Below are positions 2,970 through 50,106 of a stretch of DNA of 64,000 nt, in pieces. The translations under genes and the position numbers were made by a program. The stretch is from Planctomycetota bacterium. Lineage in GTDB: Bacteria > Planctomycetota > Phycisphaerae > UBA1845. Under the pieces are notes generated by a model. The model saw only the letters and a program-made list of their open reading frames with translations, searched no databases and was not told the DNA's origin. Where the stretch lies: contig JAJRYY010000009.1 of assembly GCA_024275565.1 (NCBI GenBank), forward strand, positions 636 through 64,635, given 5' to 3'. Position 1 is the first letter of the stretch, and each line of letters starts with the position of its first letter.

Positions 2970-3025
2970 TGAGTCGTCCTGCGCTGCCTCTGTTTTTTTC
3001 CGCCTCAAGCCCGAACCTTCGTCGC

Positions 3026-5314
3026 TCATCGGACCAACGTCCTGATCCAATCCGGAACGACCAGTTCGCCTGCATCGGTTTCCTCGGTGTTGCCCTTGGA
3101 CGATTTCTTTCGCATGTCCATTTCCTGGGTCGCGAAGGTCAACCGTGCAAGCAGGTCTGCTGGAGGGACTGACCTGTGCATGATCGCCTGTTTGTAATCT
3201 GCGAGTGCGTCCTTCAATTCATGGAGCATTGCGTGGAGATCTCCACGGCGGACGAGCAGCTCGTATGGGGCTTCTGAGATTTTGATTGCATCGGATATGG
3301 CAAGGATCGTCTCCTGCACCCGTTCCCGCATACGCAATCTCTCAAGCCTTGCAGCCACATGCCCGGACGACAACTGTTCTGCCCGTCCCAGATCGTCGTT
3401 GGATCGGGAGAACTCCGCCAGCCTTGCGTGGGCAAATGCCCGGGCGACGTAGAATCCCGAGACTTTCGGGTCCATGTTGATTGCTTTGTTGAAATCCTCG
3501 ATGGACTCCGATGCGTTCTTTCCATTGTCAGCCAGCAGGCGAATCAGACCACGCAAGACATATGCTGCGGGCCGCTCAGGGTTGAACTGGATCAGAAAGG
3601 AAACGTCTTCCATTGCGGCGGAGAAATCACCGCGCCGAATGAGAAGAATTGTGCGTAACTGCCACGCTCCTGTCTCTGGAAGCCCTGTTCCGAACGACTC
3701 ATTGACGAAGTCGAACGCGCGCTGCGGATCGGTCGAATCGAGCGCCTGGCGGAAATAATCTGTAGCAGCCTGAAAGGCCTGGTCACGCCGTCCGCCGATG
3801 GCAGTCTGCAGATCGGATTCGTCCCGAAGCATCTGTGTGAATTCATCCATCAGTGCTGCCACAAGCGATCGATCTGCGTCTGTATAGTCGGCGAAGGATG
3901 CAGGTAGTGGGAAGGTTGCAACTTCGTCGCTTGTCGCCTTGGGCTGAAATGTGGACATCGCACTTTTGATGACCTCGGACATCGCGCCCGCACCCTTGGC
4001 TGCCAGCTCCCATTCGATCGGCGCGTTCTGCTGGAGCGCGTCCATGATGGTTGTGCGCTCCGCCTCCAACTCATCGACACGGGTCTGAAGCTGTTCCTGC
4101 TCCTGCTCGGCTTGTTTGATTTCCTCCTGCTTCACGATCCGTTCAGCGTTGAACTTGCGTGACTGCACGTACACAATGACCATCGCAGCCGTGACGAGTA
4201 TCGCGAGGATTCCAGCTTCCACACGATTGCGTGAGATAAAACGAAACATCCGTGAAAACACGCTTTCGCGACGTGCTACGATGGACCGTCGTTTCAGATA
4301 TCGGCGTAGATCTTCGGCCATCTCGTCGGCCGACTCGTATCGGCGTGAGACATCCTTGTCGATCGCTTTGAGGCAGACGGTTTCGAGATCGGTGGGGATC
4401 ATGGGATTGTGATGGCGAGGTGCTGATACTTCGGAGGAGATGATCTTGGAGATGACCTGAGCGCGCGTTTCGCCGGGGAATGGTGGCGAGAGCGTCATCC
4501 ACTCATACATGGTCGCACCGAGCGAATAGATGTCGGTTCGGTGATCGATTTTGGACGCATCGCCGGTGATCTGTTCGGGCGACATGTAGAGAGGTGATCC
4601 GAGAAATTCACCGGTCATGGTGACGCCGGGCTGCTCCTGGATGCGTGCGAGTCCGAAATCGGTCACCTGCATGACCCCATCGTTGCCCAGGACGCAATTG
4701 TGGGGTTTGATGTCACGGTGGATGACACCTTCCCGATGCGCGTAGGCCAATGCGTCGGCGATCGAAGCAAGGTGGGCCGTCATGCTGTCGAACTGCTCCT
4801 GGGTTGTGGCAGACAGGTCCGAGCGTGGAATGACGGGTCGGTTGGCTGAGTCCATCATGACGGTTTCTTCGATGCCCGGTGTCGATGCTACTGCACTCTG
4901 GGGCATTGTCCTGGTCACGTCGGTACCGGACTGTGCGCCTCCACCGCGTGCGTCGTTGATGATGTCGATGAGCGGGCGTCCGTCGACGAACTCCATCGCA
5001 TAATAATATAGACCGTCATGCTCACCCTGGGCGTATACGCCGACAATGTGGGGGTGTTGAAGCTTTGCTGCGGCTTGAGCTTCCCGGCGGAATCGGAGGA
5101 TCGCGGTTTCAGTCAGACAACCGGACTCCCGGAGCACCTTGAGGGCGACCCGCCGATTGAGCGATTTCTGGCGGGCTTCGTAGACCGTCCCCATCCCGCC
5201 CCGACCGACCTCGCGAATAATCTCGAACTCGCCCAGAACGCGACCGATCATCGTATCCGATGGGCCGCCGCCTGAACCGCCGAAACTGCCGGATTGTCCC
5301 TCCATGCCCGCCAT
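3026..5314 (-). CDS. serine/threonine protein kinase with TM segment and C-terminal TPR-like region
   Basis: Hanks kinase motifs GRGGMGTVYEA, HRDIKPHN, DFGLAR and SPE. A mid-protein TM helix (AGILAILVTAAMVIVYV) is followed by a long helical repeat region. Confidence 0.9.
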   Translation of the reverse strand: MAGMEGQSGSFGGSGGGPSDTMIGRVLGEFEIIREVGRGGMGTVYEARQKSLNRRVALKVLRESGCLTETAILRFRREAQAAAKLQHPHIVGVYAQGEHDGLYYYAMEFVDGRPLIDIINDARGGGAQSGTDVTRTMPQSAVASTPGIEETVMMDSANRPVIPRSDLSATTQEQFDSMTAHLASIADALAYAHREGVIHRDIKPHNCVLGNDGVMQVTDFGLARIQEQPGVTMTGEFLGSPLYMSPEQITGDASKIDHRTDIYSLGATMYEWMTLSPPFPGETRAQVISKIISSEVSAPRHHNPMIPTDLETVCLKAIDKDVSRRYESADEMAEDLRRYLKRRSIVARRESVFSRMFRFISRNRVEAGILAILVTAAMVIVYVQSRKFNAERIVKQEEIKQAEQEQEQLQTRVDELEAERTTIMDALQQNAPIEWELAAKGAGAMSEVIKSAMSTFQPKATSDEVATFPLPASFADYTDADRSLVAALMDEFTQMLRDESDLQTAIGGRRDQAFQAATDYFRQALDSTDPQRAFDFVNESFGTGLPETGAWQLRTILLIRRGDFSAAMEDVSFLIQFNPERPAAYVLRGLIRLLADNGKNASESIEDFNKAINMDPKVSGFYVARAFAHARLAEFSRSNDDLGRAEQLSSGHVAARLERLRMRERVQETILAISDAIKISEAPYELLVRRGDLHAMLHELKDALADYKQAIMHRSVPPADLLARLTFATQEMDMRKKSSKGNTEETDAGELVVPDWIRTLVR

Positions 5315-5711
5315 CCAAGTGTCCGCCTTGCTACTGACCTCTATCTACCATCCGCCTCTCATTCGCTTCAATCCAACCGTCAATATGCCTATATCCTGCC
5401 CAATCCCTCACGGTAGCTATTTTCGCGGTACTTCATGCACGGTCAATGCGACAAACGTGCATCCTTTATAATGACTGACGCCGTGGACGATGGTTTGTGT
5501 CAAGAATGTTGCTGGAAAGTCGAATATTGTAATCTTTTACCCAAAATCATGCCTTTGATTGCAATATTGTCGTTACATCAGCGAATAGGTTGGGCAATTT
5601 TGGCCCATCTTCACCCCGCCTTGCCCGCGCCTCGATATATCGGAAATTTCGCTGAATCCGACCCGAGGCCATTATCACCGACCTTGCACTCTCATTTCTG
5701 TGTCACTCTAT

Positions 5712-6242
5712 CTACGTCGGCGCGCGGGCAGGGGTCACTGCATTCGGAAATGCGTCGCTCGCGTGGAGGCGTCCGAGTCGCAGATAGTTGTCCACCACGA
5801 ATCCCATGTACGCCAGTTCCTTCTCGTTCACGGATCGGACAGGTTTCGCGGGGATGCCCATCATGACCGTTCGTGGTTTGACCACGGTGTAGGGTGGGAC
5901 GACCGCACCGGCTGCGATGAGGCATTCTTCACCGATCTCACACCCGTCGAGGATGATCGCCCCGATGCCGACGAGCGTACCGCGCCCCACGCTGAGGCAG
6001 TGGACGACGGCTCGATGCCCGACGCTGACGCCATCTTCGAGGATTAAATCGTCGCCGGTGTTGGTGTGGAGGATGGATCCGTCCTGGATGTTGACGCGTC
6101 GCCCGAGGGTGATTTTTCCCACGTCGCCCCGAATCGTAACGTGGTGCATGATCGTGCATTCGTCACCGATGACCACATCGCCACCGACATAGGACGTCGG
6201 AGCGATGTAGGTGTTTTTACCGAGCTGTACCCGCCCTTCCAT
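5712..6242 (-). CDS. gamma-class carbonic anhydrase-like / left-handed beta-helix (hexapeptide) protein
   Basis: Hexapeptide repeats run throughout (IGDECTIMHHVTIRGD..., VGHRAVVHCLSVGRGTLVGIGAIILDGCEIGEECLIAAGAVV). The start is placed at MEGRV (6242), giving ~176 aa. The longer 242-aa ORF adds a non-homologous extension that runs into the ClC gene. Confidence 0.85.
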   Translation of the reverse strand: MEGRVQLGKNTYIAPTSYVGGDVVIGDECTIMHHVTIRGDVGKITLGRRVNIQDGSILHTNTGDDLILEDGVSVGHRAVVHCLSVGRGTLVGIGAIILDGCEIGEECLIAAGAVVPPYTVVKPRTVMMGIPAKPVRSVNEKELAYMGFVVDNYLRLGRLHASDAFPNAVTPARAPT

Positions 6243-6421: not shown

Positions 6422-8236
6422 ATGATAAATCGCTTCCCAAGAGGACGACGGCTTCGCGTGTTGATGCTGCGCATTCTGGCCCGTGGCGGGTTCAAGGAGG
6501 AGTACTTCCTCATCACGCTCGCACTGCTCATCGGGGCAGCCACAGGGCTTGGGGCGCACCTCTTTTTCGAACTGATCGAGTATGCAACGCACCTTGCATA
6601 CGGCGCGAGCGATGGACTGTTCGCCGGGCGACCCTACATGATTGTCGTCATGCCGGTCGTGGCAGCCCTGGCGGTCGGTGCCATGACATACCGCTTCGCC
6701 CGTGAGGCCAAGGGGCACGGTGTCCCCGAAGTGATGGACGCGATATATCGCCAGGGTGGCGTTATCCGTGCCCGCGTCGCGATCGTCAAAGCAGTGGCGA
6801 GCGCCCTGACCATCGGGTCTGGCGGGTCGGCTGGGACCGAAGGACCGATCGTGCAGATTGGGGCGGCGGTTGGTAGCGGATTTGGACAATTTCTCAATGT
6901 CGAGCGCCGCCAGATGGGGATCCTGGTGGCATGCGGGGTGGCGGGCGGAATCGCAGCCATCTTCAACGCACCGATCGCCGGGGTTCTGTTCGCACTTGAA
7001 ATATTCCTGAAAGATTTCTCGCTCCGGGCCTTCGCACCGGTCGTATTCGCAAGCGTCATCAGTTGCTCCATCACGCACGCGCTTCGCTTCGGCGGCGGGG
7101 ATGTCGCCATTTTCCAGGTATATCAGGACGCTCAATACAATTTCAGCGGTCTGGAGCTTCCCTATTTCCTCCTCCTCGGCGTTCTCTGTGCGATCGTCGC
7201 AGCCGTGTTCATTAAATCACTCTACGCTGCCGAGGATCTCGCGGACCGTCTCACAATCCCCGATTACCTGAAACCAGCGATCGGCGCCTTTGGACTTGGT
7301 ATTCTCGGACTCATCTTTCTACTGACAACTGAGCCTGGCAGCCATCAAATGCCTTCGTTTTTTGGGAACGGGTATACACTGATTGAGACAGCCATCTCCC
7401 CGAAAGTATTCAACGAGGGCGTGGGATTACTCCTGCTGCTGCTCGTACTCAAGATATTGGCCACCTGCCTCACGCTCGGCAGCGGCGGATCGGGTGGTAT
7501 TTTCGCACCTTCGCTGTTCATGGGTGCGGTAACTGGCGGAGCGTTCGGACTCATCCTCTACCAGGTCGGACTGATCCCGCAAGACAGCATCACAGCCTAC
7601 GCACTGGTAGGGATGGCTGCCGTGCTGGCTGGCACCACGCACGCTCCACTCACCGCCATTGTGATGCTCTACGAAATAACACGCGAACCCAAGGTCATCC
7701 TTCCGATCATGTTCGCAGCCATCGTGGCTACTACCGTCGCCCAGAATCTCTGCCGCGACAGCATCTACACGTTGAAATTGCGACGCCGAGGTGTTCGCGT
7801 CGGGACGCTGGCAGACCTGACGATTCTCAAGGGCATCTCAGCCCACCAGGTCGCCACCTCCCCCGCAGTCCTTGTCCACCCCGAAGACCCCCTGCAGAAG
7901 CTCATCGACCTTGCGACCGAAAATGAAACGGGGGATTTTGTCGTGGTCGACCCGGACGGTGCGTTCCAAGGCCTGGTCATCGCAGAGGACATCCGCACCG
8001 CCCTGTTGCAACCGGAGGCGGTCCCGTTGCTGCTGGTGGGCGAGCTGCTCCGTCAGGGGATCCCGATTATCGACCCCGATGAAACTCTCGACAATGTGAT
8101 GGACGCGTTTGCGAAATCCAATGTCCAGTCGCTCCCGGTCGGTATGGACAACAACTCCGACCACGTGAAATGCCTCATCACGCGTCAGGCAGTCATGACC
8201 CGATACCACCAGGAATTTGAAGTGCATTCCGACTGA
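6422..8236 (+). CDS. ClC-family voltage-gated chloride channel/antiporter with C-terminal CBS pair
   Basis: Selectivity-filter motifs GSGGSAGTEGP and GSGGSGGIFAPS, multiple TM helices, and a C-terminal CBS-like region. The start is uncertain (6422 or the ATG at 6464). Confidence 0.9.
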   Translation: MINRFPRGRRLRVLMLRILARGGFKEEYFLITLALLIGAATGLGAHLFFELIEYATHLAYGASDGLFAGRPYMIVVMPVVAALAVGAMTYRFAREAKGHGVPEVMDAIYRQGGVIRARVAIVKAVASALTIGSGGSAGTEGPIVQIGAAVGSGFGQFLNVERRQMGILVACGVAGGIAAIFNAPIAGVLFALEIFLKDFSLRAFAPVVFASVISCSITHALRFGGGDVAIFQVYQDAQYNFSGLELPYFLLLGVLCAIVAAVFIKSLYAAEDLADRLTIPDYLKPAIGAFGLGILGLIFLLTTEPGSHQMPSFFGNGYTLIETAISPKVFNEGVGLLLLLLVLKILATCLTLGSGGSGGIFAPSLFMGAVTGGAFGLILYQVGLIPQDSITAYALVGMAAVLAGTTHAPLTAIVMLYEITREPKVILPIMFAAIVATTVAQNLCRDSIYTLKLRRRGVRVGTLADLTILKGISAHQVATSPAVLVHPEDPLQKLIDLATENETGDFVVVDPDGAFQGLVIAEDIRTALLQPEAVPLLLVGELLRQGIPIIDPDETLDNVMDAFAKSNVQSLPVGMDNNSDHVKCLITRQAVMTRYHQEFEVHSD

Positions 8237-9898: not shown

Positions 9899-10735
9899 TT
9901 ATCCGATCTTGCAGTAGATCATGTGGGTGACCGCATTGACGCCCCCAGCCTTGAGGACGTCTTTGACCTTGGTCTTGGGCACTTTCACATGCTCCTGCTC
10001 GATGAGCGCTTTTTCAGCGTAGAATGCGTTGACCTTGCCCTCAACGATCATCTCGACGATGTTCGGCGGCTTGCCATCACCCTCGGCAATCTCCTTGGAC
10101 AAAGACCGAACCTTCTCAACATCCTCAGCCGGGATACCATCCGGTGCGATCGCCATCGGGTTCGAAAAGGTCACATGATGACAAAGGTCCGTCCCGATCG
10201 AATCATCCGTCGGTGCAGCATCCAACCCGACAAGCACACCCGTCTTACAATCGTGATGCACATAAGAACACACATACCCGGTCGTGATCTTCGTACACGC
10301 TGTCAGCTTGATATTCTCACGAAGCAAACCAAAAACCTCTTCGATCTCACCCTGAAGCGTACGACCAGGATTCGACACAGAGTCCATCGCAAGGACCTCA
10401 TCCAGCGAAGGAGACGCAGCATCACTCAGACAGACGGTCTTGGCGATCGCATCCGCCATCGCGACATACTGATCCGTTTTGGCAACCGGTGCAGTCTCGC
10501 ATCGAACATCAATAATCGAACCCGTCTTTTTATCGTCCGAAATGTGAACAGCCACGGCACCCTCACCCGTCTCATTGCCGGAACGCTTCTCCATCTTGCC
10601 CTTATACTTTTTCTGCAAAAGGACCTTGGCTTCTTCCGCGTCGCCATTGGTCTCGGACAAAGCAGCCTTGCATTCCATCATCGGCAGGCCTGTCTCATCT
10701 CGCAGTGCTTTAACTTGTGCGGCCTTAATCGCCAT
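9899..10735 (-). CDS. tsf: translation elongation factor Ts
   Basis: 278 aa. The N-terminal UBA-like motif (VKALRDETGLPMMECKAAL) and the dimerisation core are recognisable. Confidence 0.95.
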   Translation of the reverse strand: MAIKAAQVKALRDETGLPMMECKAALSETNGDAEEAKVLLQKKYKGKMEKRSGNETGEGAVAVHISDDKKTGSIIDVRCETAPVAKTDQYVAMADAIAKTVCLSDAASPSLDEVLAMDSVSNPGRTLQGEIEEVFGLLRENIKLTACTKITTGYVCSYVHHDCKTGVLVGLDAAPTDDSIGTDLCHHVTFSNPMAIAPDGIPAEDVEKVRSLSKEIAEGDGKPPNIVEMIVEGKVNAFYAEKALIEQEHVKVPKTKVKDVLKAGGVNAVTHMIYCKIG

Positions 10736-43489: not shown

Positions 43490-43522
43490 GCACCAGGGGC
43501 AGTATTTCCAAAAAAAATGAGA

Positions 43523-43557
43523 AAGCCGGCTCGCGATCAAACATCGCGAGCCGGCTT
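43523..43557. terminator. bidirectional rho-independent terminator between convergent genes
   Basis: 15-bp stem AAGCCGGCTCGCGAT-CAAAC-ATCGCGAGCCGGCTT, flanked by an A8 run upstream and T-rich sequence downstream. Confidence 0.75.
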
Positions 43558-43641
43558 CTTCTCTATAAAAAAACGTAACCGGACCCCACATCCCAGCGAC
43601 AGGACATCCATCCAGATACGCAACGAGCGCCGAATCGATAA

Positions 43642-44775
43642 TCACGAATCATCGCCGCAGGCGCTACCAACCAGCCCGCGAATCTGCTCAGAAAGATCAC
43701 CACCTCCAAACACAAACGTCGAGCGCGTCCCGGAAAGAATCTCACCAAGCTGCTCAAACTCCTTCATCCGCGCAAGCGTAGGATTCTCAGCAAGCAACTT
43801 CGCAGTATTCGCCTGACTCCGTGCAGCAGCCGTCTCCTCACGACGCCGGATAAGGTTCGCCTGAGCAGACTTCTCAGCCTCAATCACCTGGTTCAGAATC
43901 GTCTTCATCTCACCAGGCAGTATGATGTCCTTAAGCCCAACGCTCTTGATGGCAACACCAAATCCCTGAGCGCGAGATGCAAGCGCATTCCGAACCTCAC
44001 CACTGACCGACTCCTTATCAGCAAGCAACGTATCCAGCGTCCGCGTACCAACAGCAGCCCGCAAAACAAGCTGTGCTTCACGGTACAACGCCTGACCATG
44101 GTCAGTCACAACGGTCACCGCCTTCACAGAATCAACAACCTGATACGCAACCAGAAGATTCACACGCAACGTAACCTTGTCCTTGGTCATGATCTCTTGG
44201 CCCGCAACATCCGCAACCTGCTCACGGCGATCAACAACGCTCCACCTCACACGTCCAACCGTGTTCCAGAAAACATGCCGGCCCTTACGAAGCGTCTCAA
44301 CAATCGCACCATCCTTAAACAACAACGCATCCTCATAATCGGAAACATCCACACTGATCAACCACTTGGACCCAACATCGAAAGCCATCACAGCATCCAG
44401 CTTCGCATGATCAAAACGCGGAACATCCGTATCGAACACCTCAACCTCAATCTTATAAGGCTCATTCCAGAACGCATGACGACCAGGCCCAACGATGTAC
44501 GCAAGGCGACCATCCTTCCAGACCAGAGCACGCTCATGGTCAGCAAGCTCGACAATCTTCAGAGCATCACGCATCGCCGCATCCTGAAGCAACACGTCCA
44601 ACAGCGGATGCTCGAACCGGGTCAACAGCGTACTCACAACGCCGATCCGATGACGCGTACGACTCCACAGAGAGCTCCACAGACGGTACTTACCCGGTTC
44701 CAGCAGCCGGACGAAATCGCCATACTCAAACAACAAACCCTTCTCATAAGACTTAATCCGCGTCAATCCAAACAT
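43642..44775 (-). CDS. SPFH/band-7 (slipin-like) protein with a triplicated N-terminal module and no obvious TM anchor
   Basis: SPFH core (VTLRVNLLVAYQVVD...LKDIILPGEMKTILNQVIEAEKSAQANLIRRREETAAAR). The start is set at the ATG at 44775, 10 nt after an AAGGAGG Shine-Dalgarno. Confidence 0.87.
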   Translation of the reverse strand: MFGLTRIKSYEKGLLFEYGDFVRLLEPGKYRLWSSLWSRTRHRIGVVSTLLTRFEHPLLDVLLQDAAMRDALKIVELADHERALVWKDGRLAYIVGPGRHAFWNEPYKIEVEVFDTDVPRFDHAKLDAVMAFDVGSKWLISVDVSDYEDALLFKDGAIVETLRKGRHVFWNTVGRVRWSVVDRREQVADVAGQEIMTKDKVTLRVNLLVAYQVVDSVKAVTVVTDHGQALYREAQLVLRAAVGTRTLDTLLADKESVSGEVRNALASRAQGFGVAIKSVGLKDIILPGEMKTILNQVIEAEKSAQANLIRRREETAAARSQANTAKLLAENPTLARMKEFEQLGEILSGTRSTFVFGGGDLSEQIRGLVGSACGDDS

Positions 44776-45144
44776 ACTCACGACACCTCCTTTCAACATA
44801 CATCCCGCACGAACTTCCGACCTATATCAACCGTCCAACAATGAACGCAAAATCTAAAATCGCAGGTTGAAGGGTGACCCTCACGATCTGTCCCGAGTTC
44901 GCAACGGAGTCGAGTTTAAGACGCACCAGCAACCACCTCGACCTTATACTTCCGGAAGGTGTCTCGATACCCGGTTACAGGGCGTCGATGGTGCTGGCAC
45001 GTCGGTATCCACCCGACTTCAAAGATACTTACACGGCGCCAACGATGTACCATGCAATCGAAACCGCATGACGCACCACCGATGGCTGACAAAATCGCTA
45101 AATCACTCCCAAAACCTGCTTTTCAAAGCGACTTTTCAGCCGCT

Positions 45145-45215
45145 CAAGAGGGGCGGGATTCGAACCCGCTACCGCACGGTTAAACCGTGTGCTCTTACCA
45201 GATGAGCTACCCAGG
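45145..45215 (-). ncRNA. tRNA-like element B (class-I-like, 5-nt anticodon loop, degenerate 5' acceptor strand)
   Basis: Canonical D arm (TAGCTCATCTGGTAAGAGCA) and T arm (GCGGGTTCGAATCCCGC). The anticodon arm is CACGG-TTTAA-CCGTG. The 3' acceptor strand CCCTCTT pairs with the 5' strand only at GGG/CCC plus one terminal pair. Confidence 0.6.
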
Positions 45216-45298
45216 TGGTCTGGACAGGAATCGAACCTGCTTCACTGTAAGGTGACAGCCCTTAACAGGCTGCGCTCGACCATCGAGCATCCAGAACC
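45216..45298 (-). ncRNA. tRNA-like element A (class-II-like with a 15-nt variable arm and non-canonical positions 4, 8 and 33)
   Basis: GGTTCTGG-AT-GCTC-GATGGTC-GAGC-G-CAGCC-TGTTAAG-GGCTG-TCACCTTACAGTGAA-GCAGG-TTCGATT-CCTGT-CCAGACC-A. The acceptor stem needs a bulged T. G replaces U33 and A replaces U8. Confidence 0.6.
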
Positions 45299-45503
45299 GA
45301 TATTGTTTCCGATGCCGTTCACGGTACACGCCACAGATAAATCCAGCACACAAATCCACCGGACCCAAAACGCGCCGCCGGCACAACATCGGTTTGACCC
45401 AATCTATACACCTTCCACATCTATACATCTTCCACGCAACCCGCACATCGCGGATGTCAATGGACCTGTAACCCGTCAGAGTCACACGATAGTCACACGA
45501 TAA

Positions 45504-46520
45504 TTACGCGATAGATATAACGATGGCGCGACTGTCCTCACGTTCCGTTTCGATCTCAACGTCAAGAAACTTACCAATCAGATCAACATGCGTTTCAGAA
45601 TGACGAGACAATCCCGTAGACCGAAACGTTCCAGACCCCGCGATCGCCATCGGCAGCAACAACTGATCCGTCAGATACTCTCCAACCGGAGCAGATGACC
45701 GAAGATAACGCTGACACTGCTGAACCGCATGGGAAGCGACAGCCTCAGCAGCTCGACCAACCTCACCGAAACCCGTAAAAACTTCCGTCACGTTCTCATA
45801 CCCAAGCTCGATCGTCACAATATTTCCAGGACCCACAGGGCGATCGATCTCAACAACTTCCGCTTCACCCTCATCCCAACCGAGACGCTTCCGCATGACG
45901 CGAACTTCCCGATCAGCGATCTTCCGATCAAGACTCGATACAACCGCCCGCCCACATCGCCGCACCAGATCGCCACGCTCCACAATGCTGATCCCACCGA
46001 AAGATTCAGCAGGTGTCACATCCACAACCATACGTCCCCCACCCGCCGGATAGAACCCATACCTCTCAAGGGTCACCGATACCTTCGGACCCATCCGATT
46101 CACAAGCGGAAGGTACGACCGCTCAAGAAAGTCAAACGGAGGTGCATACGGATTATGCGTCCCGCCCTCAAGCACGATCCGACTCGGCGCTTTCGCAAGT
46201 GCAAGCGGAAGCAAAATCGTCTGCAGCACAAGCGTCGTACTACCCGCCGTCCCAATACTGAACGTATAATCACCACCCACAGCCACACCCGGAACAAACA
46301 CCAGCTCGGTCGAACCCATCTCATCGCCCTCGACCTTACACCGCCCAATCTCAGCAGCAGCACGGACAGCCGTAAGGTGTTGTCGCAGCAGTCCGGGCTT
46401 CCTCCGCTTCGCACGAATATTCTCAATTCGAAACGCCCTACCCGTAACGATCGACAGCGCAAGGGACGATCGCAATATCTGCCCCCCGCCTTCACAAAAT
46501 GAACCATCAACCGTCAACAT
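45504..46520 (-). CDS. rtcA: RNA 3'-terminal phosphate cyclase
   Basis: MLTVDGSFCEGGGQILRSSLALS N-terminus and full-length RtcA similarity. The start is set at the ATG at 46520 with an AGGAGG Shine-Dalgarno; the ORF track begins 15 codons earlier. Confidence 0.92.
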   Translation of the reverse strand: MLTVDGSFCEGGGQILRSSLALSIVTGRAFRIENIRAKRRKPGLLRQHLTAVRAAAEIGRCKVEGDEMGSTELVFVPGVAVGGDYTFSIGTAGSTTLVLQTILLPLALAKAPSRIVLEGGTHNPYAPPFDFLERSYLPLVNRMGPKVSVTLERYGFYPAGGGRMVVDVTPAESFGGISIVERGDLVRRCGRAVVSSLDRKIADREVRVMRKRLGWDEGEAEVVEIDRPVGPGNIVTIELGYENVTEVFTGFGEVGRAAEAVASHAVQQCQRYLRSSAPVGEYLTDQLLLPMAIAGSGTFRSTGLSRHSETHVDLIGKFLDVEIETEREDSRAIVISIA

Positions 46521-46603
46521 CACAACAACCTCCTGGAAAGAACAATTCATCGACAGGGCGACCATGTCTTCCTAACAACAGGGCGCCCATATCTTCTTCA
46601 ACA

Positions 46604-46792
46604 GTGTGGCCCATGTCTTCAGACATGGGGGAGCCGAAGACCACCCGCACAGCAACCCAAACTCTAGCCAAGCCTCAGGGTCCACTGTACGGACCACCAT
46701 CACAACATAAAACGGGTCCCACCGGCGACTCGTCCGCCAGCGTGCTTCATCACAGCATAAAACGGGTGCCACTGGCGGCTTGTCCGCCAGTG
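46604..46792. repeat. REP-like hairpin cluster inside the rtcB-rtcA spacer
   Basis: Module GTGGCCCATGTCTTCAGACATGGGGGAGCCGAAGA (46604-46646), hairpin GGTCCACTGTACGGACC (46679-46697), and a tandem ~50-bp duplication with one CCACyGGCG...CGCCAG hairpin in each copy (46714-46742 and 46766-46792). Confidence 0.8.
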
Positions 46793-46850
46793 TCTATAAC
46801 AAACACAACCATCGCATCCCACACAGCACCCCAGACACACCACAACCACC

Positions 46851-48347
46851 TCAATCATCCGCCGCAGAAGCATCCTTAATCACAAAACGCGCCTTCAACC
46901 GTGCAACCTCAGAAGCCAGCCCGGCAAGCTTCACAGAACGAAGCACCTCATCAAAATCCTTATAGACAGCCGGGGCTTCATCCATCGGATAATTCCGGCA
47001 ATTCGTCATAATATCGCACGTCTCGAACGACGCATTGATCGACTTCTGATCCAGCGACCGGATCGCGGCTTTGCGACCCATCACGCGTCCGGCACCATGA
47101 TTCACACTGTAACAACTAATCTCCGCACCCTTATCCGCCACCATGACAGCCGACCCCCGCTGCGGATCACCCGGCAGCAAAATAGGATGCCCGCTCTTGG
47201 CAAACGGCGTATCCTTCAACGCATAATGACCACCAGGAAACGCCCGGGTCGCACCCTTACGCATCACCCAGGAAGGTCGGTTATTCACAATCTCCTTCCG
47301 CGCAATATTATGACTGATGAGGTAAACCAGCTCACCAGACACACCCGGAATGACCTCCTGAAAAGCCTCCAGCACAAGCGCGTTAATCAGCAGATGATTC
47401 ACAGTCGCAAAATTCGCTCCCATGGACATATCATCGATATAAGCATTCGCCTCAGGCGTCCCAAGCGGTGCATAACACAAATGCCTGTCATTCCCAGGAT
47501 ACTCTATACCCCACCGGTCAAACTTCCGCTGCAACGCCTGAAACTGTCCCATAGCAAGGTTGTGACCAAATCCACGCGATCCACAGTGCGAGAGAAACGC
47601 GACATGCTTATCCCGCAGCCCGAAGGTCTCAGCACAGTGCTTCGCCCGGCTGTCATCACCAACCTCCACCACCTCACACTCGCCAAAATGATTACCGCCA
47701 CCATACGACCCAAGCTGCGTAACCTTCTCCCTGAACTTCGGAAACGCCCCGGAGTGCAGTAGCCAGTCGAGTCGAGCACCCAGCGCATCCCGGGTTTCAT
47801 CGTGTCCCAGGTGGAAAGAGTCCTCACAACGCGTCGCCCACCGTGCAGGGACACCCATCGCCTCACAAACCCCCTGCGACGCACCTTCGATCGCAACGCG
47901 TCTCCCCAGCGGCTCGCCCACATGCCTCGATTTTCGGACGCTGCGCTGGCCCCGCCCCGCTCCCGTAGGCGTCCGCTCACAAATCGCCTCAATCACCGCC
48001 CGCCGGGTACGACGATCCAGAACCTCATTTTCAGGCAAATCAAGCTGCAATAAGCTCATGGAACACTTGATATCCACGCCTACGGGACCGGGGTAGATGT
48101 GGGAGGCGGAGGCCATCACGCAGCCAATGGGGGCGCCATACCCGATATGGGCATCGGGGTTCAGTACCACTTCATCCACGCCGGGGGCGAGGCGGGCATT
48201 GACCACCTGCTGCAAAGTGGCGTCATCAAACGTATCAAGGATAGCCTCGGTCCCAATAACCGTTATTGGCTTCACCTTACCGTCAGCCACCGGCAAAATA
48301 GACGTTGCCGCACCCGTACTCACCAGTCTGTTCGTATGCTTCGCCAT
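46851..48347 (-). CDS. rtcB: RNA-splicing ligase RtcB
   Basis: Metal and GMP-site motifs NPDAHIGYG, GGGNHFGE and SHCGSRGFGH. The start is set at the ATG at 48347 (MAKHTNR), with a GAGGAG Shine-Dalgarno 7 nt upstream. Confidence 0.95.
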   Translation of the reverse strand: MAKHTNRLVSTGAATSILPVADGKVKPITVIGTEAILDTFDDATLQQVVNARLAPGVDEVVLNPDAHIGYGAPIGCVMASASHIYPGPVGVDIKCSMSLLQLDLPENEVLDRRTRRAVIEAICERTPTGAGRGQRSVRKSRHVGEPLGRRVAIEGASQGVCEAMGVPARWATRCEDSFHLGHDETRDALGARLDWLLHSGAFPKFREKVTQLGSYGGGNHFGECEVVEVGDDSRAKHCAETFGLRDKHVAFLSHCGSRGFGHNLAMGQFQALQRKFDRWGIEYPGNDRHLCYAPLGTPEANAYIDDMSMGANFATVNHLLINALVLEAFQEVIPGVSGELVYLISHNIARKEIVNNRPSWVMRKGATRAFPGGHYALKDTPFAKSGHPILLPGDPQRGSAVMVADKGAEISCYSVNHGAGRVMGRKAAIRSLDQKSINASFETCDIMTNCRNYPMDEAPAVYKDFDEVLRSVKLAGLASEVARLKARFVIKDASAADD

Positions 48348-48385
48348 CAGAATACTCCTCACGTTCCATGTGTACTGATAACCAT

Positions 48386-48402
48386 AAGCACCCTGCGTGC
48401 CA
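48386..48402 (-). promoter_or_regulatory. sigma-54 (-24/-12) promoter of rtcBA
   Basis: The minus strand reads TGGCACgcagggTGCTT, with correct GG-N10-GC spacing, about 40 nt upstream of the rtcB ATG and facing the divergent rtcR. Confidence 0.78.
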
Positions 48403-48498: not shown

Positions 48499-50106
48499 AT
48501 GTTGAACGTCGCAATCGGAATGCTGGGCATGATGCGGGATCGCGGGGATGGACCGGATCGGTGGTCGCAATGGCGCCCTACTGTGTCTTTGTGTCAGCAC
48601 GAGGATCTGTTGATCAGCCGTCTCGAACTGCTCGTCGAGACAGGATCGATGGATCTGGCGAATCGGGTGGCAGCCGACGTTCGCTCGGTATCCCCCGAGA
48701 CCGAAGTTCGCCTCCATATGATCGAATTTGGCGATCCATGGGACTTCGAGAATGTCTACAGCGTCCTGCACGGGTTTGCCCTGGATTACCAGTTTGACAC
48801 CGATCAGGAGCGGTATCTGATTCATGTGACCACGGGTACCCATGTCGCTCAAATCTGCACCTACCTGCTGACGGAATCCCGGCATCTTCCCGGGCGGTTG
48901 ATTCAGACGGCGCCTCCGAAGCGGCGTAGTTCTGGGCAGGCTGGCCGGTATACGATTATTGATCTGGATTTGTCGAAATACGATCGAATCGCGCAGCGTT
49001 TTGAAAGCGAGCAGCGCGAAGGATCTGAATTCCTGAAGGCTGGGATTCAGACGCGTAATGTTGCTTTTAATCGCATGATTGACGAGATCGAATATGTGGC
49101 GATCCACTCGCGGGCGCCGATCCTGCTGACGGGTCCGACGGGGGCGGGGAAGTCGAGTCTCGCCCGTCGTATCTTTGATCTGCGGAAGTTGCGGAACAAC
49201 GTTGCGGGTCGTTTTGTGGAGGTCAACTGTGCGACCTTGCGTGGTGACGGAGCGATGTCTGCTCTTTTTGGTCATACGCGTGGATCGTTCACGGGGGCTG
49301 CTCAGGATCGGGCTGGATTGCTGAAGGAAGCCCACCTTGGGATTCTGTTTCTTGATGAGGTTGGCGAGCTGGGTCTGGATGAACAGGCGATGCTCTTGCG
49401 GGCTGTCGAAGAGCATCGTTTTCTTCCGCTTGGATCGGACAAGGAGGTCAGCAGTGATTTTCAGCTGATCTGCGGTACGAATCGCGACCTCGGGGCTGAT
49501 GTCCGGTCGGGTCGATTTCGCAACGATCTGTTGTCCCGGATCAACCTCTGGGCATTTGAACTGCCGGGGTTGGCGCAGCGGCGTGAGGATATTGAACCGA
49601 ACGTTCATTTTTCTCTTGAGCAGGTCACGGTTGCGACGGGCCATCGTTTTCGGTTCAACAAGGAGGCATTGGATATGTTTCTGCGGTTTGCGGAATGTCC
49701 GGATACCCCCTGGACCGGGAATTTTCGAGACCTCGACGCTGCCATAGCCCGGATGGCGACCTTGGCGCCGTCCGGGAGGATTACGGAGGAGGCGGTGGAT
49801 CGTGAGATTGATCGCCTCAAGCGGTCGTGGCGTGATTCTGGAACGTCTGCTTCGGTCGATGGTACGCATGTTCTGGAAGCCCTGCTGGGAGACAGGCTGG
49901 ACGACCTTGACGAATTCGACAGGGTTCAACTCGAGCGTGTGGTGCTGGTCTGTATGGAGTCGCGGTCCTTGTCGGTGGCTGGCCGTCGTTTGTTCGCTGC
50001 CTCAAGGCGTAAGCGGAAGGCGCCGAACGATGCGGATCGCCTTCGGAAGTATTTGTCGCGGTATCGACTGGACTGGTCCATGGTGAAAGACGCTCTTCCC
50101 GGGTGA
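48499..50106 (+). CDS. rtcR: sigma-54-dependent transcriptional activator RtcR
   Basis: RtcR-type N-terminal (CARF-like) domain, AAA+ core with Walker A GPTGAGKS and the sigma-54 contact loop GSFTGA, and a C-terminal HTH. It is divergent from rtcB. Confidence 0.92.
   Translation: MLNVAIGMLGMMRDRGDGPDRWSQWRPTVSLCQHEDLLISRLELLVETGSMDLANRVAADVRSVSPETEVRLHMIEFGDPWDFENVYSVLHGFALDYQFDTDQERYLIHVTTGTHVAQICTYLLTESRHLPGRLIQTAPPKRRSSGQAGRYTIIDLDLSKYDRIAQRFESEQREGSEFLKAGIQTRNVAFNRMIDEIEYVAIHSRAPILLTGPTGAGKSSLARRIFDLRKLRNNVAGRFVEVNCATLRGDGAMSALFGHTRGSFTGAAQDRAGLLKEAHLGILFLDEVGELGLDEQAMLLRAVEEHRFLPLGSDKEVSSDFQLICGTNRDLGADVRSGRFRNDLLSRINLWAFELPGLAQRREDIEPNVHFSLEQVTVATGHRFRFNKEALDMFLRFAECPDTPWTGNFRDLDAAIARMATLAPSGRITEEAVDREIDRLKRSWRDSGTSASVDGTHVLEALLGDRLDDLDEFDRVQLERVVLVCMESRSLSVAGRRLFAASRRKRKAPNDADRLRKYLSRYRLDWSMVKDALPG

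Follow-up and report, generated by a model that had tools for sequence, protein, structure and literature searches.

We report here on two tRNA-like elements, A and B, that abut on the minus strand (45298-45145) of a 64,000-nucleotide (nt) stretch of Planctomycetota DNA (Phycisphaerae, UBA1845; assembly GCA_024275565.1, contig JAJRYY010000009.1), hereafter the window, directly downstream of the RNA-repair genes rtcB and rtcA. The pair is the tRNA-like domain of a Band-7-associated non-coding RNA of the b7a-tRNA class, and we consider it probable (about 70%) that this domain belongs to an RNA of ~550 nt that partners an oligomer of the Band-7 protein in RNA repair controlled by RtcR and sigma-54. 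Element B is the conserved b7a tRNA-like module, orthologous to the single element of rtc operons in other phyla, and element A is a second tRNA-like module, inserted in part of the lineage at a variable site between a helix termed P1 and element B.

A tRNA-like RNA adjoining Band-7 and RtcB was predicted by Burroughs and Aravind in 2016 under the name b7a-tRNA and, as summarised by Wang et al. (2018; bioRxiv 10.1101/312249), the only publication that a literature search for this term returned, was predicted to be functionally redundant with YrlA/Rsr, the protein partners being occasionally swapped. Because its class was predicted in 2016, the tRNA-like element is not categorically new. Relative to the class as it is summarised there, what is new, as far as we can tell, is the variant of two abutting modules, the additional one being class-II-like, the covariation evidence that b7a elements are structured and conserved, and their placement as one domain of a large structured RNA that is not in Rfam.

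Two tRNA-shaped modules

45216..45298, minus strand: element A, class-II tRNA-like module of 83 nt, lineage-specific
45216/45215-45145, minus strand: element B, ortholog of b7a-tRNA, whose first base is, or adjoins, the discriminator base A45216 of element A

The sequence details that a first-pass annotation had given for the two abutting elements were all found as described when re-read. In element A, of 83 nt, the acceptor strands (GGUUCUGG/CCAGACC) pair only with one bulged U, positions 8-9 are A and U, the D arm is GCUCG-AUGGU-CGAGC, the variable arm has 15 nt and the T arm is canonical (GCAGG-UUCGAUU-CCUGU), while the anticodon arm, CAGCC-UGUUAAG-GGCUG, carries a G at position 33, where U33 is expected. 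Element B combines textbook D (GCUC/GAGC) and T (GCGGG-UUCGAAU-CCCGC) arms with an anticodon arm, CACGG-UUUAA-CCGUG, whose loop has 5 nt, and with a faulty acceptor, in which contiguous pairing is confined to GGG/CCC (3 bp) plus a terminal A1-U72. No CCA is encoded 3' of either element in the window sequence.

Detection programs divided the pair between them. ARAGORN reported element A as 'tRNA-Stop (tta)' at 45214-45297, its sole call in the 64-kb window, and did not call element B. Conversely, element B scored 40.6 bits with the Rfam tRNA model (gathering score 29), the match being local and limited to model positions 5-66, and no Rfam tRNA model matched element A above its gathering score; the best tRNA-type score for A, at a permissive threshold, was tRNA-Sec at 31.6 bits, below the gathering score of 47. 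Since the D/T elbow and the anticodon stem are kept, the acceptors are short or irregular, CCA is absent and the loops are free to vary, elements A and B are tRNA shape mimics and not decoders.

Membership of the Band-7-associated family

A genome scan with RtcA yielded 68 rtc loci (numbered with the prefix L, as are loci retrieved separately), in which Band-7 and Rsr were mapped by tblastn. Band-7 was present in 18/68 and is preceded in these, on the same strand and at a distance of 330-470 nt, by a tRNA-like element; the element was not detected in L053 nor in the incomplete L028. The usual order in Band-7 rtc loci is rtcR on the opposite (minus) strand, followed by the RNA, Band-7, rtcA and rtcB, and loci with the element and Band-7 span genomes labelled Planctomycetota, Desulfobacterales, Victivallales and Pseudomonadales. 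The same arrangement of element and Band-7 was found in all 12 further loci fetched via Band-7 homologs. The RNA and Band-7 also occur away from rtcBA, as in L077, L078, L079 and L082, whose retrieved stretches lack rtc genes; in L081, rtcA comes after Band-7. The rtc context given by the first-pass annotation was right, and what it overlooked was the next gene downstream, Band-7, which is the constant partner across phyla.

The relatives' elements score 39-66 bits as tRNA in Rfam. Furthermore, a covariance model (R1) built from 13 Band-7-associated elements, with the window and its close relatives excluded, gave element B a full-length match of 57.4 bits (E about 1e-16) and element A a score of 24.6 bits; because R1 scores genuine tRNAs equally well, membership rests on context and shared flanking domains. 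In MAFFT alignments, element B aligns with the single element of other phyla and element A is treated as an insertion of ~80 nt.

With the b7a-tRNA as summarised (Wang et al., 2018), the window shares a tRNA-like gene adjoining a Band-7/SPFH gene in an RtcB-centred RNA-repair operon, and a role as alternative to Rsr and YrlA. It differs in having two abutting modules with a common junction nucleotide, of which A is an extra, class-II-like one, and in the truncated 3-bp acceptor and 5-nt loop of B. Moreover, the tRNA-like part makes up only ~1/4 of the ~550-nt RNA in the window, and the summary is silent on 5' and 3' domains. In P. aeruginosa, a 2026 study describes the SPFH protein PaFlo8 embedded in the rtc locus; the RNA is not mentioned there.

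Distribution and covariation of the tandem

The A and B tandem occupies the same position in relatives whose Band-7 proteins are 68-83% identical (L001, L056, L071, L072, L073/L074, L075/L076, L078 and L080). Element A lacks a variable arm in L072/L075 (class I) and a T loop in L080, and it is missing altogether from L077, where a small hairpin stands instead, and from L079, L081 and L082; it is confined to some Phycisphaerae. A second abutting tandem, arranged differently, is present in L034 (Sedimentisphaerales). In a metagenome scan with the junction pattern TTCGATTCCTGNCCAGACCAC, only two matches were obtained, both within coding sequence and unrelated.

Alignment A3, comprising 8 sequences over the double cloverleaf and the following hairpin HP2, was compared with slid partners and 500 shuffles as controls. 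Paired cells reached 93.6% vs 36-45% with slid partners, and 17 pairs had changes on both sides vs 1-6; the observed values were reached by 0/500 shuffles. The changes on both sides are located in the anticodon stem and variable arm of A and in the anticodon stem, acceptor and T stem of B, and the D and T arms are more conserved than neutral sequence 100 nt away. The suggestion of the first-pass annotation that the elements are tRNA mimics tied to the Rtc module, and not ordinary decoding tRNAs, is borne out by this conserved, structured and covarying pair.

The unusual loops followed a different course. Covariation among relatives was present in the stems, but the loop features that had been taken as diagnostic (the 5-nt loop, G33 and the UUAA centre) proved specific to the window: the loop of element B has 7 nt in L071, L072, L075, L077, L078, L079 and L081 and 5 nt only in the window, U33 is present in element A of L001, and a 'UUAA' loop centre is not common to the orthologs. 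Anticodons of element A among orthologs are UUA, GAA, AAG, UGA, GAG and CAG; those of element B and its orthologs are GAA, GUU, AUG, GAU, GUA, AAG, AAC and UAG, or the loops have 5, 6 or 8 nt. Orthologs in other phyla combine this body, on a class-I frame, with Tyr or Leu anticodons, or bear A34 anticodons. The anticodon-loop sequence is therefore unconstrained or diversifying.

The pair within a larger structured RNA

The pair first described, although real, covers about 150 nt of a structured RNA of ~550 nt, whose conserved blocks were seen across 15-24 loci of several phyla. Its parts in the window are as follows, in the order of transcription.

~44851..45394, minus strand: whole conserved structured RNA of 544 nt (5' domain, tRNA-like pair, 3' domain), between rtcA and Band-7
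45384..45394, minus strand: 5' strand of helix P1 (AACCGAUGUUG), which pairs with 45305-45295 and closes the 5' domain
45371..45381, minus strand: 5' strand of the 5'-domain core, box 1 (CCGGCGGCGCG), CC-N-GYGG-CGCAC in 22/22 leaders tested
45315..45332, minus strand: 3' strand of the 5'-domain core, box 2 (GGCGUGUACCGUGAACGG), which pairs with box 1
45295..45305, minus strand: 3' strand of helix P1 (CAAUAUCGGUU), overlapping the first four bases of the 5' acceptor strand of element A
45128..45143, minus strand: hairpin HP2 (GCGGC-UGAAAA-GUCGC), directly after element B, conserved in position and with changes on both sides
45089..45127, minus strand: 5' strand of a long-range duplex, including GCAGGUU..GGGAGUGAUU
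45001..45017, minus strand: hairpin GUCGG-GUGGAUA-CCGAC with a GGAUA loop, its GYGGAUACCG box kept across phyla (from sequences, with no statistics)
44891..44908, minus strand: hairpin UCCG...CGGGA, equivalent to the CUCCGC..GYGGR box of other phyla (aligned block, stem variants by reading)
44851..44890, minus strand: 3' strand of the long-range duplex, including GGUCACCC..AACCUGC

In relatives, the leaders measure 449-833 nt from just before the core motif to the start of Band-7. At the gathering score, Rfam 15 gave only tRNA matches in the window and 11 related loci, and at E<=10 over 44500-45800 it gave no credible family for the 5' or the 3' domain. In the 10/10 loci where the RNA directly follows a divergent rtcR, promoters of the GGCAC-N5-TTGC type lie 28-63 nt upstream of the 5' domain.

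Besides the double cloverleaf, three parts of this architecture are supported by covariation. A helix equivalent to P1, of 7-13 bp, was recovered in 19/22 loci with unrelated sequences, the variants including CUGAUAUC/GAUAUCAG, GUCGCCG/CGGCGAC, GUGCUGGCA/UGCCAGCAU, CACGAUC/GAUCGUG and UGGUCGGUGUC/GACAUCGACUG, among others. In the ungapped-helix table, cognate strands scored 19.6 vs 15.2 +/- 2.7 for non-cognate ones and, this separation being modest, the main argument for P1 is that helices of unrelated sequence recur at the same place; an RNAduplex test of cognate against non-cognate strands was uninformative, P1 being identical in many Phycisphaerae and the search regions too long. Within P1, the core CC-N-GYGG-CGCAC ... 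GUGYG-UW-CCRY-NNNN-GG, which is nearly invariant, folds into an irregular helix with a variable hairpin at its tip; in 22 sequences 92% of its cells pair vs 23-54% when slid, and 5 pairs (14 cells) change on both sides, e.g., from GCGG/CCGU to GUGG/CCAC. The long-range duplex of the window (free energy -33.1 kcal/mol, roughly 25-30 bp) encloses about 200 nt, and across 21 loci the cognate mean was -33.3 vs -20.6 (sd 6.1) kcal/mol for non-cognate strands, a mean reached by 0/20000 permutations; a subset of 14 loci of distinct lineages agrees. Hairpin HP2 has a counterpart in other phyla, CCGC-GAAA/GCAA-GCGG.

Because the 3' strand of P1 overlaps the first four acceptor bases of element A, the true acceptor of A probably has only about 4-5 bp (UCUGG/CCAGA) stacked on P1, and RNAalifold predicted likewise. 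The GGGUUCUGAC box of other phyla had been considered as the equivalent of the 5' acceptor strand of A, a match that was rejected after P1 was recognised; the box corresponds to CAUCGGAA of the window, within the 5' domain.

A perfect hairpin of ~20 bp, GTAGGGTGGGCCGTGCCCACC...GGTGGGCACGGCCCACCCTAC, which is absent from the window, separates the structured RNA from the start of Band-7 in L001 (about 7790-7850) and at equivalent sites of L056, L072 and L073, and could be a repeat element or a stabiliser of the RNA 3' end.

Relation to YrlA Y RNAs and Ro

No Ro/Rsr homolog was found by tblastn in the window or in any Band-7 locus, with an Rsr query verified to contain TROVE and vWA_Ro60, so that the earlier observation of a window devoid of rsr held. 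Rsr was present in 20/68 rtcA loci and Band-7 in 18/68, with zero overlap; Band-7 with its RNA and Rsr with Y RNA are mutually exclusive in the 68-locus sample. On account of this exclusion, the window RNA and YrlA/Rsr probably act in the same functional niche. In this context, the window resembles the rsr-yrlBA-rtcBA system in having a non-coding RNA that mimics tRNA and keeps the D/T elbow intact, an rtc operon controlled by RtcR and sigma-54, and a presumed scaffold protein alongside. The two differ in arm order, which is that of a normal tRNA in the window and permuted (T arm, acceptor hairpin, D arm) in YrlA, and in partner, which is an SPFH and not a TROVE protein; moreover, the window RNA is several times longer and has neither a Ro-binding helix nor the GNCGAAN0-1G motif.

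The first-pass annotation had also raised the possibility of a Y-RNA-like partner, but a YrlA/YrlB identity did not survive comparison. The YrlA model (RF02553) reached 25.6 bits vs a gathering score of 69, over model positions 27-81 only, in a match that spans the T arm of A, the A/B junction with a possible CCAG/CUGG hairpin, and the D arm of B. A YrlA-like permuted fold over this junction was rejected: the closing CCAG/CUGG hairpin is present in the window and is not conserved, the column opposite A98 being A in 4/8 sequences, and the acceptor pair 111-177 of B covaries instead. Likewise, the Ro-binding motif GNCGAAN0-1G is absent from the minus strand of 44800-45450.

In several other loci (L012, L014, L030, L032, L037, L042, L043, L048, L049, L050, L054, L058 and L059, at about 3000-5900), the operon strand carries, from rsr to rtcB, series of 2-5 T-arm modules at intervals of 120-170 nt. 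They were not called as tRNAs by ARAGORN and presumably are YrlA-type Y RNA arrays.

Proposed function and alternative explanations

In the scheme that we propose, RtcR would activate the sigma-54 promoter, and transcription of the RNA would accompany or narrowly precede that of Band-7. The stomatin-like Band-7 protein, as a soluble ring or cage, would then bind this RNA, probably at the invariant core of the 5' domain, at the GGAUA loop or at both, and the complex would display one or two tRNA-shaped modules. These modules may recruit damaged tRNA or enzymes that recognise tRNA, such as RtcB, RtcA and those that heal ends or add CCA, and the complex would thereby fill the role that Ro60 (Rsr) and the YrlA Y RNA have in other rtc operons. 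A more specific version, in which the uncatalogued large RNA (about 450-830 nt) and the cage-forming stomatin-like protein constitute a damage-induced ribonucleoprotein under RtcR/sigma-54 control, a bacterial counterpart of the Ro/Y RNA or of the vault that would act in the repair of tRNA or other RNA, is offered tentatively, as we give it slightly less than an even chance. In the eukaryotic vault, the major vault protein, whose shoulder domain is SPFH-like, is accompanied by vault RNA and by TEP1, a TROVE protein. The likeness is one of analogy only, drawn on an oligomeric SPFH-fold assembly, a small structured RNA and a TROVE protein as alternative or partner; the window system differs in being bacterial, with a stomatin-like protein and a tRNA-like, much larger RNA.

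Several points weigh against this interpretation. The scaffold role would follow from analogy with Ro/Y RNA, and the RNA always lies 5' of the Band-7 open reading frame on the same strand, which is equally expected of a cis-acting leader. Model R1 has no power to separate b7a elements from genuine tRNAs, a tRNA-Asn scoring 73.9 bits, and P1 and the outer acceptor pairs of A may compete for the same four bases. Furthermore, the b7a-tRNA, as summarised in bioRxiv 10.1101/312249, is a prediction without experimental validation.

Two other functions for a structured RNA at this position deserve weight, although we regard both as unlikely. The modules might be sentinels or decoys, cleaved by or titrating anticodon nucleases, either feeding 2',3'-cyclic-phosphate fragments to the CARF domain of RtcR or inhibiting the nuclease by mimicry. 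RtcR has been reported to be activated by damaged tRNA fragments with cyclic phosphate ends and, for YrlA, competitive inhibition of the anticodon nuclease has been proposed as a possibility; hypervariable loops on conserved stems are compatible with an arms race, and many orthologs have a 7-nt loop, U33 and natural anticodons (GUU, GUA, GAA, GAU). However, this variation is as much like relaxed constraint as diversifying selection, and the loops are not tRNA-like in length in the window (5 nt; A with G33), in L001 (6-8 nt) and in L080, L009, L011 and L045, which would make them poor nuclease substrates. Besides, an RNA placed behind an RtcR-dependent promoter would be scarce before induction, and the large conserved 5' and 3' domains and the strict linkage to Band-7 are left unexplained. 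By a hair less plausible is a purely cis-acting leader for Band-7, in which the modules would serve as RNase P/RNase Z processing signals or stabilising signals, splitting the Band-7 message from rtcBA or shielding its 5' end. Processing signals of tRNA-like shape in polycistronic transcripts are well known, and the RNA lies directly upstream of Band-7, on the same strand, in every locus where it was detected, with no terminator between the two in the window. Nevertheless, a covarying structure of ~550-800 nt with invariant cores far exceeds what processing signals need, and a stretch of 50-250 nt that includes variable inserts separates the long-range duplex, at its 3' strand, from the Band-7 ribosome-binding site, which the conserved structure therefore does not sequester. 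The acceptor of B, with only 3-5 bp in this lineage, would be a poor RNase P substrate (the M. smegmatis YrlA has been reported to be cleaved because of its 7-bp stem), and the mutual exclusion with Rsr and Y RNA points to a trans-acting RNA-protein complex.

The remaining explanations are far less credible. Decoding tRNAs, with element A as an ochre suppressor (UUA) or as a class-II tRNA similar to tRNA-Sec or to allo-tRNAs, which are unusual class-II tRNAs, seem very improbable. The tRNA-Stop call, the weak tRNA-Sec match and the Leu anticodons on class-II A in L071 (AAG), L078 (GAG) and L080 (CAG) would favour them. The elements resemble such tRNAs in the cloverleaf with textbook D/T arms, and A resembles tRNA-Sec in its long variable arm and 6-bp-capable D stem; the Rfam tRNA score of B exceeds the gathering score, over model positions 5-66 only. 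In contrast to canonical tRNAs, the anticodon is not conserved among orthologs, that of A changing in nearly every one, the loops are non-canonical (G33 in A, 5 nt in B), the acceptors are short or irregular (bulged in A, which also has A8; 3 bp in B) and CCA is absent; A is lost or reduced in several relatives, the same body bears varied anticodons in other phyla, and the two modules form part of a covarying RNA of greater size, in which helix P1 takes up bases of the acceptor strand of A. To a similarly small degree do we credit a divergent YrlA/YrlB Y RNA whose Ro partner would be encoded at another genomic site: the operon is of the same kind and there is a weak YrlA match of 25.6 bits, but this score is far below 69, the closing hairpin is not conserved, the GNCGAAN0-1G motif is lacking and Rsr is missing from Band-7 loci. 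Least credible of all, and practically negligible, is an origin without function, be it from tRNA genes in decay or from the remains of a tRNA or suppressor array of a phage, both of which had been suggested as alternatives, or of a mobile element. Non-canonical anticodon arms and tRNA arrays near the rtc genes of relatives could be read in that sense; against it stand the pairing-preserving changes on both sides of stems, the position and orientation relative to Band-7 kept across phyla, D/T arm conservation above that of neutral sequence 100 nt away and, as regards phages, a search of 50,697 phage records in which no Band-7 homolog was found.

The operon and the Band-7 protein

48499..50106, plus strand: rtcR (CARF domain and sigma-54 activator), divergent; Pfam RtcR 1.6e-80, Sigma54_activat 6e-46
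48388..48402, minus strand: candidate sigma-54-type promoter TGGCACGCAGGGTGC, in the rtcR-rtcB intergenic region 5' of rtcB, with one mismatch to TGGCAC-N5-TTGC
46851..48362, minus strand: rtcB, RNA ligase; Pfam RtcB 4e-99
45504..46565, minus strand: rtcA, RNA 3'-phosphate cyclase; Pfam RTC 1e-75
43642..44775, minus strand: Band-7/SPFH stomatin-like 'slipin' of 377 amino acids; Pfam Band_7 4e-30
43522..43558, minus strand: intrinsic terminator at the operon end, a 16-bp stem (10 G-C pairs) followed by a T run

Pfam confirmed rtcB and rtcA directly upstream of the pair on the same strand, as first annotated, and rtcR divergent. The candidate promoter TGGCACGCAGGGTGC has by itself a chance-level frequency, and its support comes from its position. 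Given a sigma-54-type site 5' of rtcB and no terminator-like site found in the window between rtcA, the RNA and Band-7, the transcription unit likely comprises promoter, rtcB, rtcA, RNA, Band-7 and terminator. In the window, the gap between rtcB and rtcA (46566-46850, 285 nt) holds only a 66-amino-acid reading frame without Pfam match and a second sigma-54-like site, TGGCACCCGTTTTAT (46771-46757, minus strand); in L001, L072 and L073 this gap has taken up further genes, among them DUF5677 and a predicted N6-adenine methylase.

On the same strand, the gene that follows, 369 nt after element B, is Band-7, in an open reading frame at 43642-44799 whose probable start is the ATG at 44775. A homolog search returned an identical 377-amino-acid protein (P0001) and thousands of homologs, and the PDB match was to stomatin (1.5e-26), the solved stomatins being 16-mers. 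No membrane segment was predicted in the protein, its maximum Kyte-Doolittle mean over 19 residues being 1.45. Read by eye in the translation, residues 1-180 contain three apparent repeats of the SPFH-opening motif (...YEKGLLFEYGDFVRLLEPGKYRLW, ...HERALVWKDGRLAYIVGPGRHAFWN, ...YEDALLFKDGAIVETLRKGRHVFWN).

Implications and related loci

In Salmonella, Rtc repair is helped by Ro and by Y RNAs that mimic tRNA. The present locus shows an alternative helper set, a stomatin-like protein and a tRNA-mimicking RNA, for which the analysis supplies boundaries, an architecture backed by covariation, a doubled variant and invariant motifs as candidate protein-binding sites. If the whole leader is one functional RNA, a sizeable structured class is missing from Rfam; this large RNA class seems to reach across several phyla, in genomes labelled Planctomycetota, Desulfobacterales, Victivallales and Pseudomonadales, and about 30% of complete E. 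coli genomes may carry it in reduced form. Since tractable hosts exist, such as P. aeruginosa with its rtc locus and PaFlo8 and E. coli strains with a slipin-RlaP module, the 2016 prediction is directly testable.

In E. coli, a module of Band-7 ('slipin') and the RlaP nucleotidyltransferase (PF10127) lies between yjbD and lysC in 1625/5426 complete genomes, e.g., L084 (strain WAT, NZ_CP012380.1 4473553-4476006) and also L083 (5472-6000). The 530-nt region upstream of the module has no annotated feature; it contains a sigma-54-like site (TGGCACGCTTCTCGC), an CGGCACAC box and a lone T arm (ATGGGTTCGATTCCCAC), and an GGGCGTGTTCCGT box is identical over 12 nt to the 5'-core motif of the window's relatives. 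Neither ARAGORN nor Rfam found a full tRNA-like element in this region, which may be a reduced form of the same RNA.

Genuine-looking tRNA genes also accompany these loci. A tRNA-His (GUG) stands directly 3' of Band-7 in L001 (9098-9170), L056 (9169-9241), L072 (4715-4787), L073 (4717-4789) and L075 (4761-4833), and directly upstream of the structured RNA instead in L078 (2786-2858); ARAGORN found no such gene in the window. Furthermore, ordinary-looking tRNA arrays (e.g., Gln, Arg, Leu, His, Asn, Pro, Tyr) occur within RtcR-controlled operons, in L049 (4061-4662), L050 (3631-4231), L043 (3563-4070), L045 (4260-4502), L007 (2684-3818 and 5221-5718), L001 (417-991) and L056 (728-1204), where they either separate rtcB from the Y-RNA-like or Band-7 modules or immediately precede rtcB; they could be damage-induced spare tRNAs. 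Finally, downstream of rtcB in L004 (Desulfobacterales), a 113-nt Rfam tRNA match (10043-10155; 60.3 bits, full model) has an insertion of ~40 nt after the anticodon region and is possibly an intron-containing tRNA.

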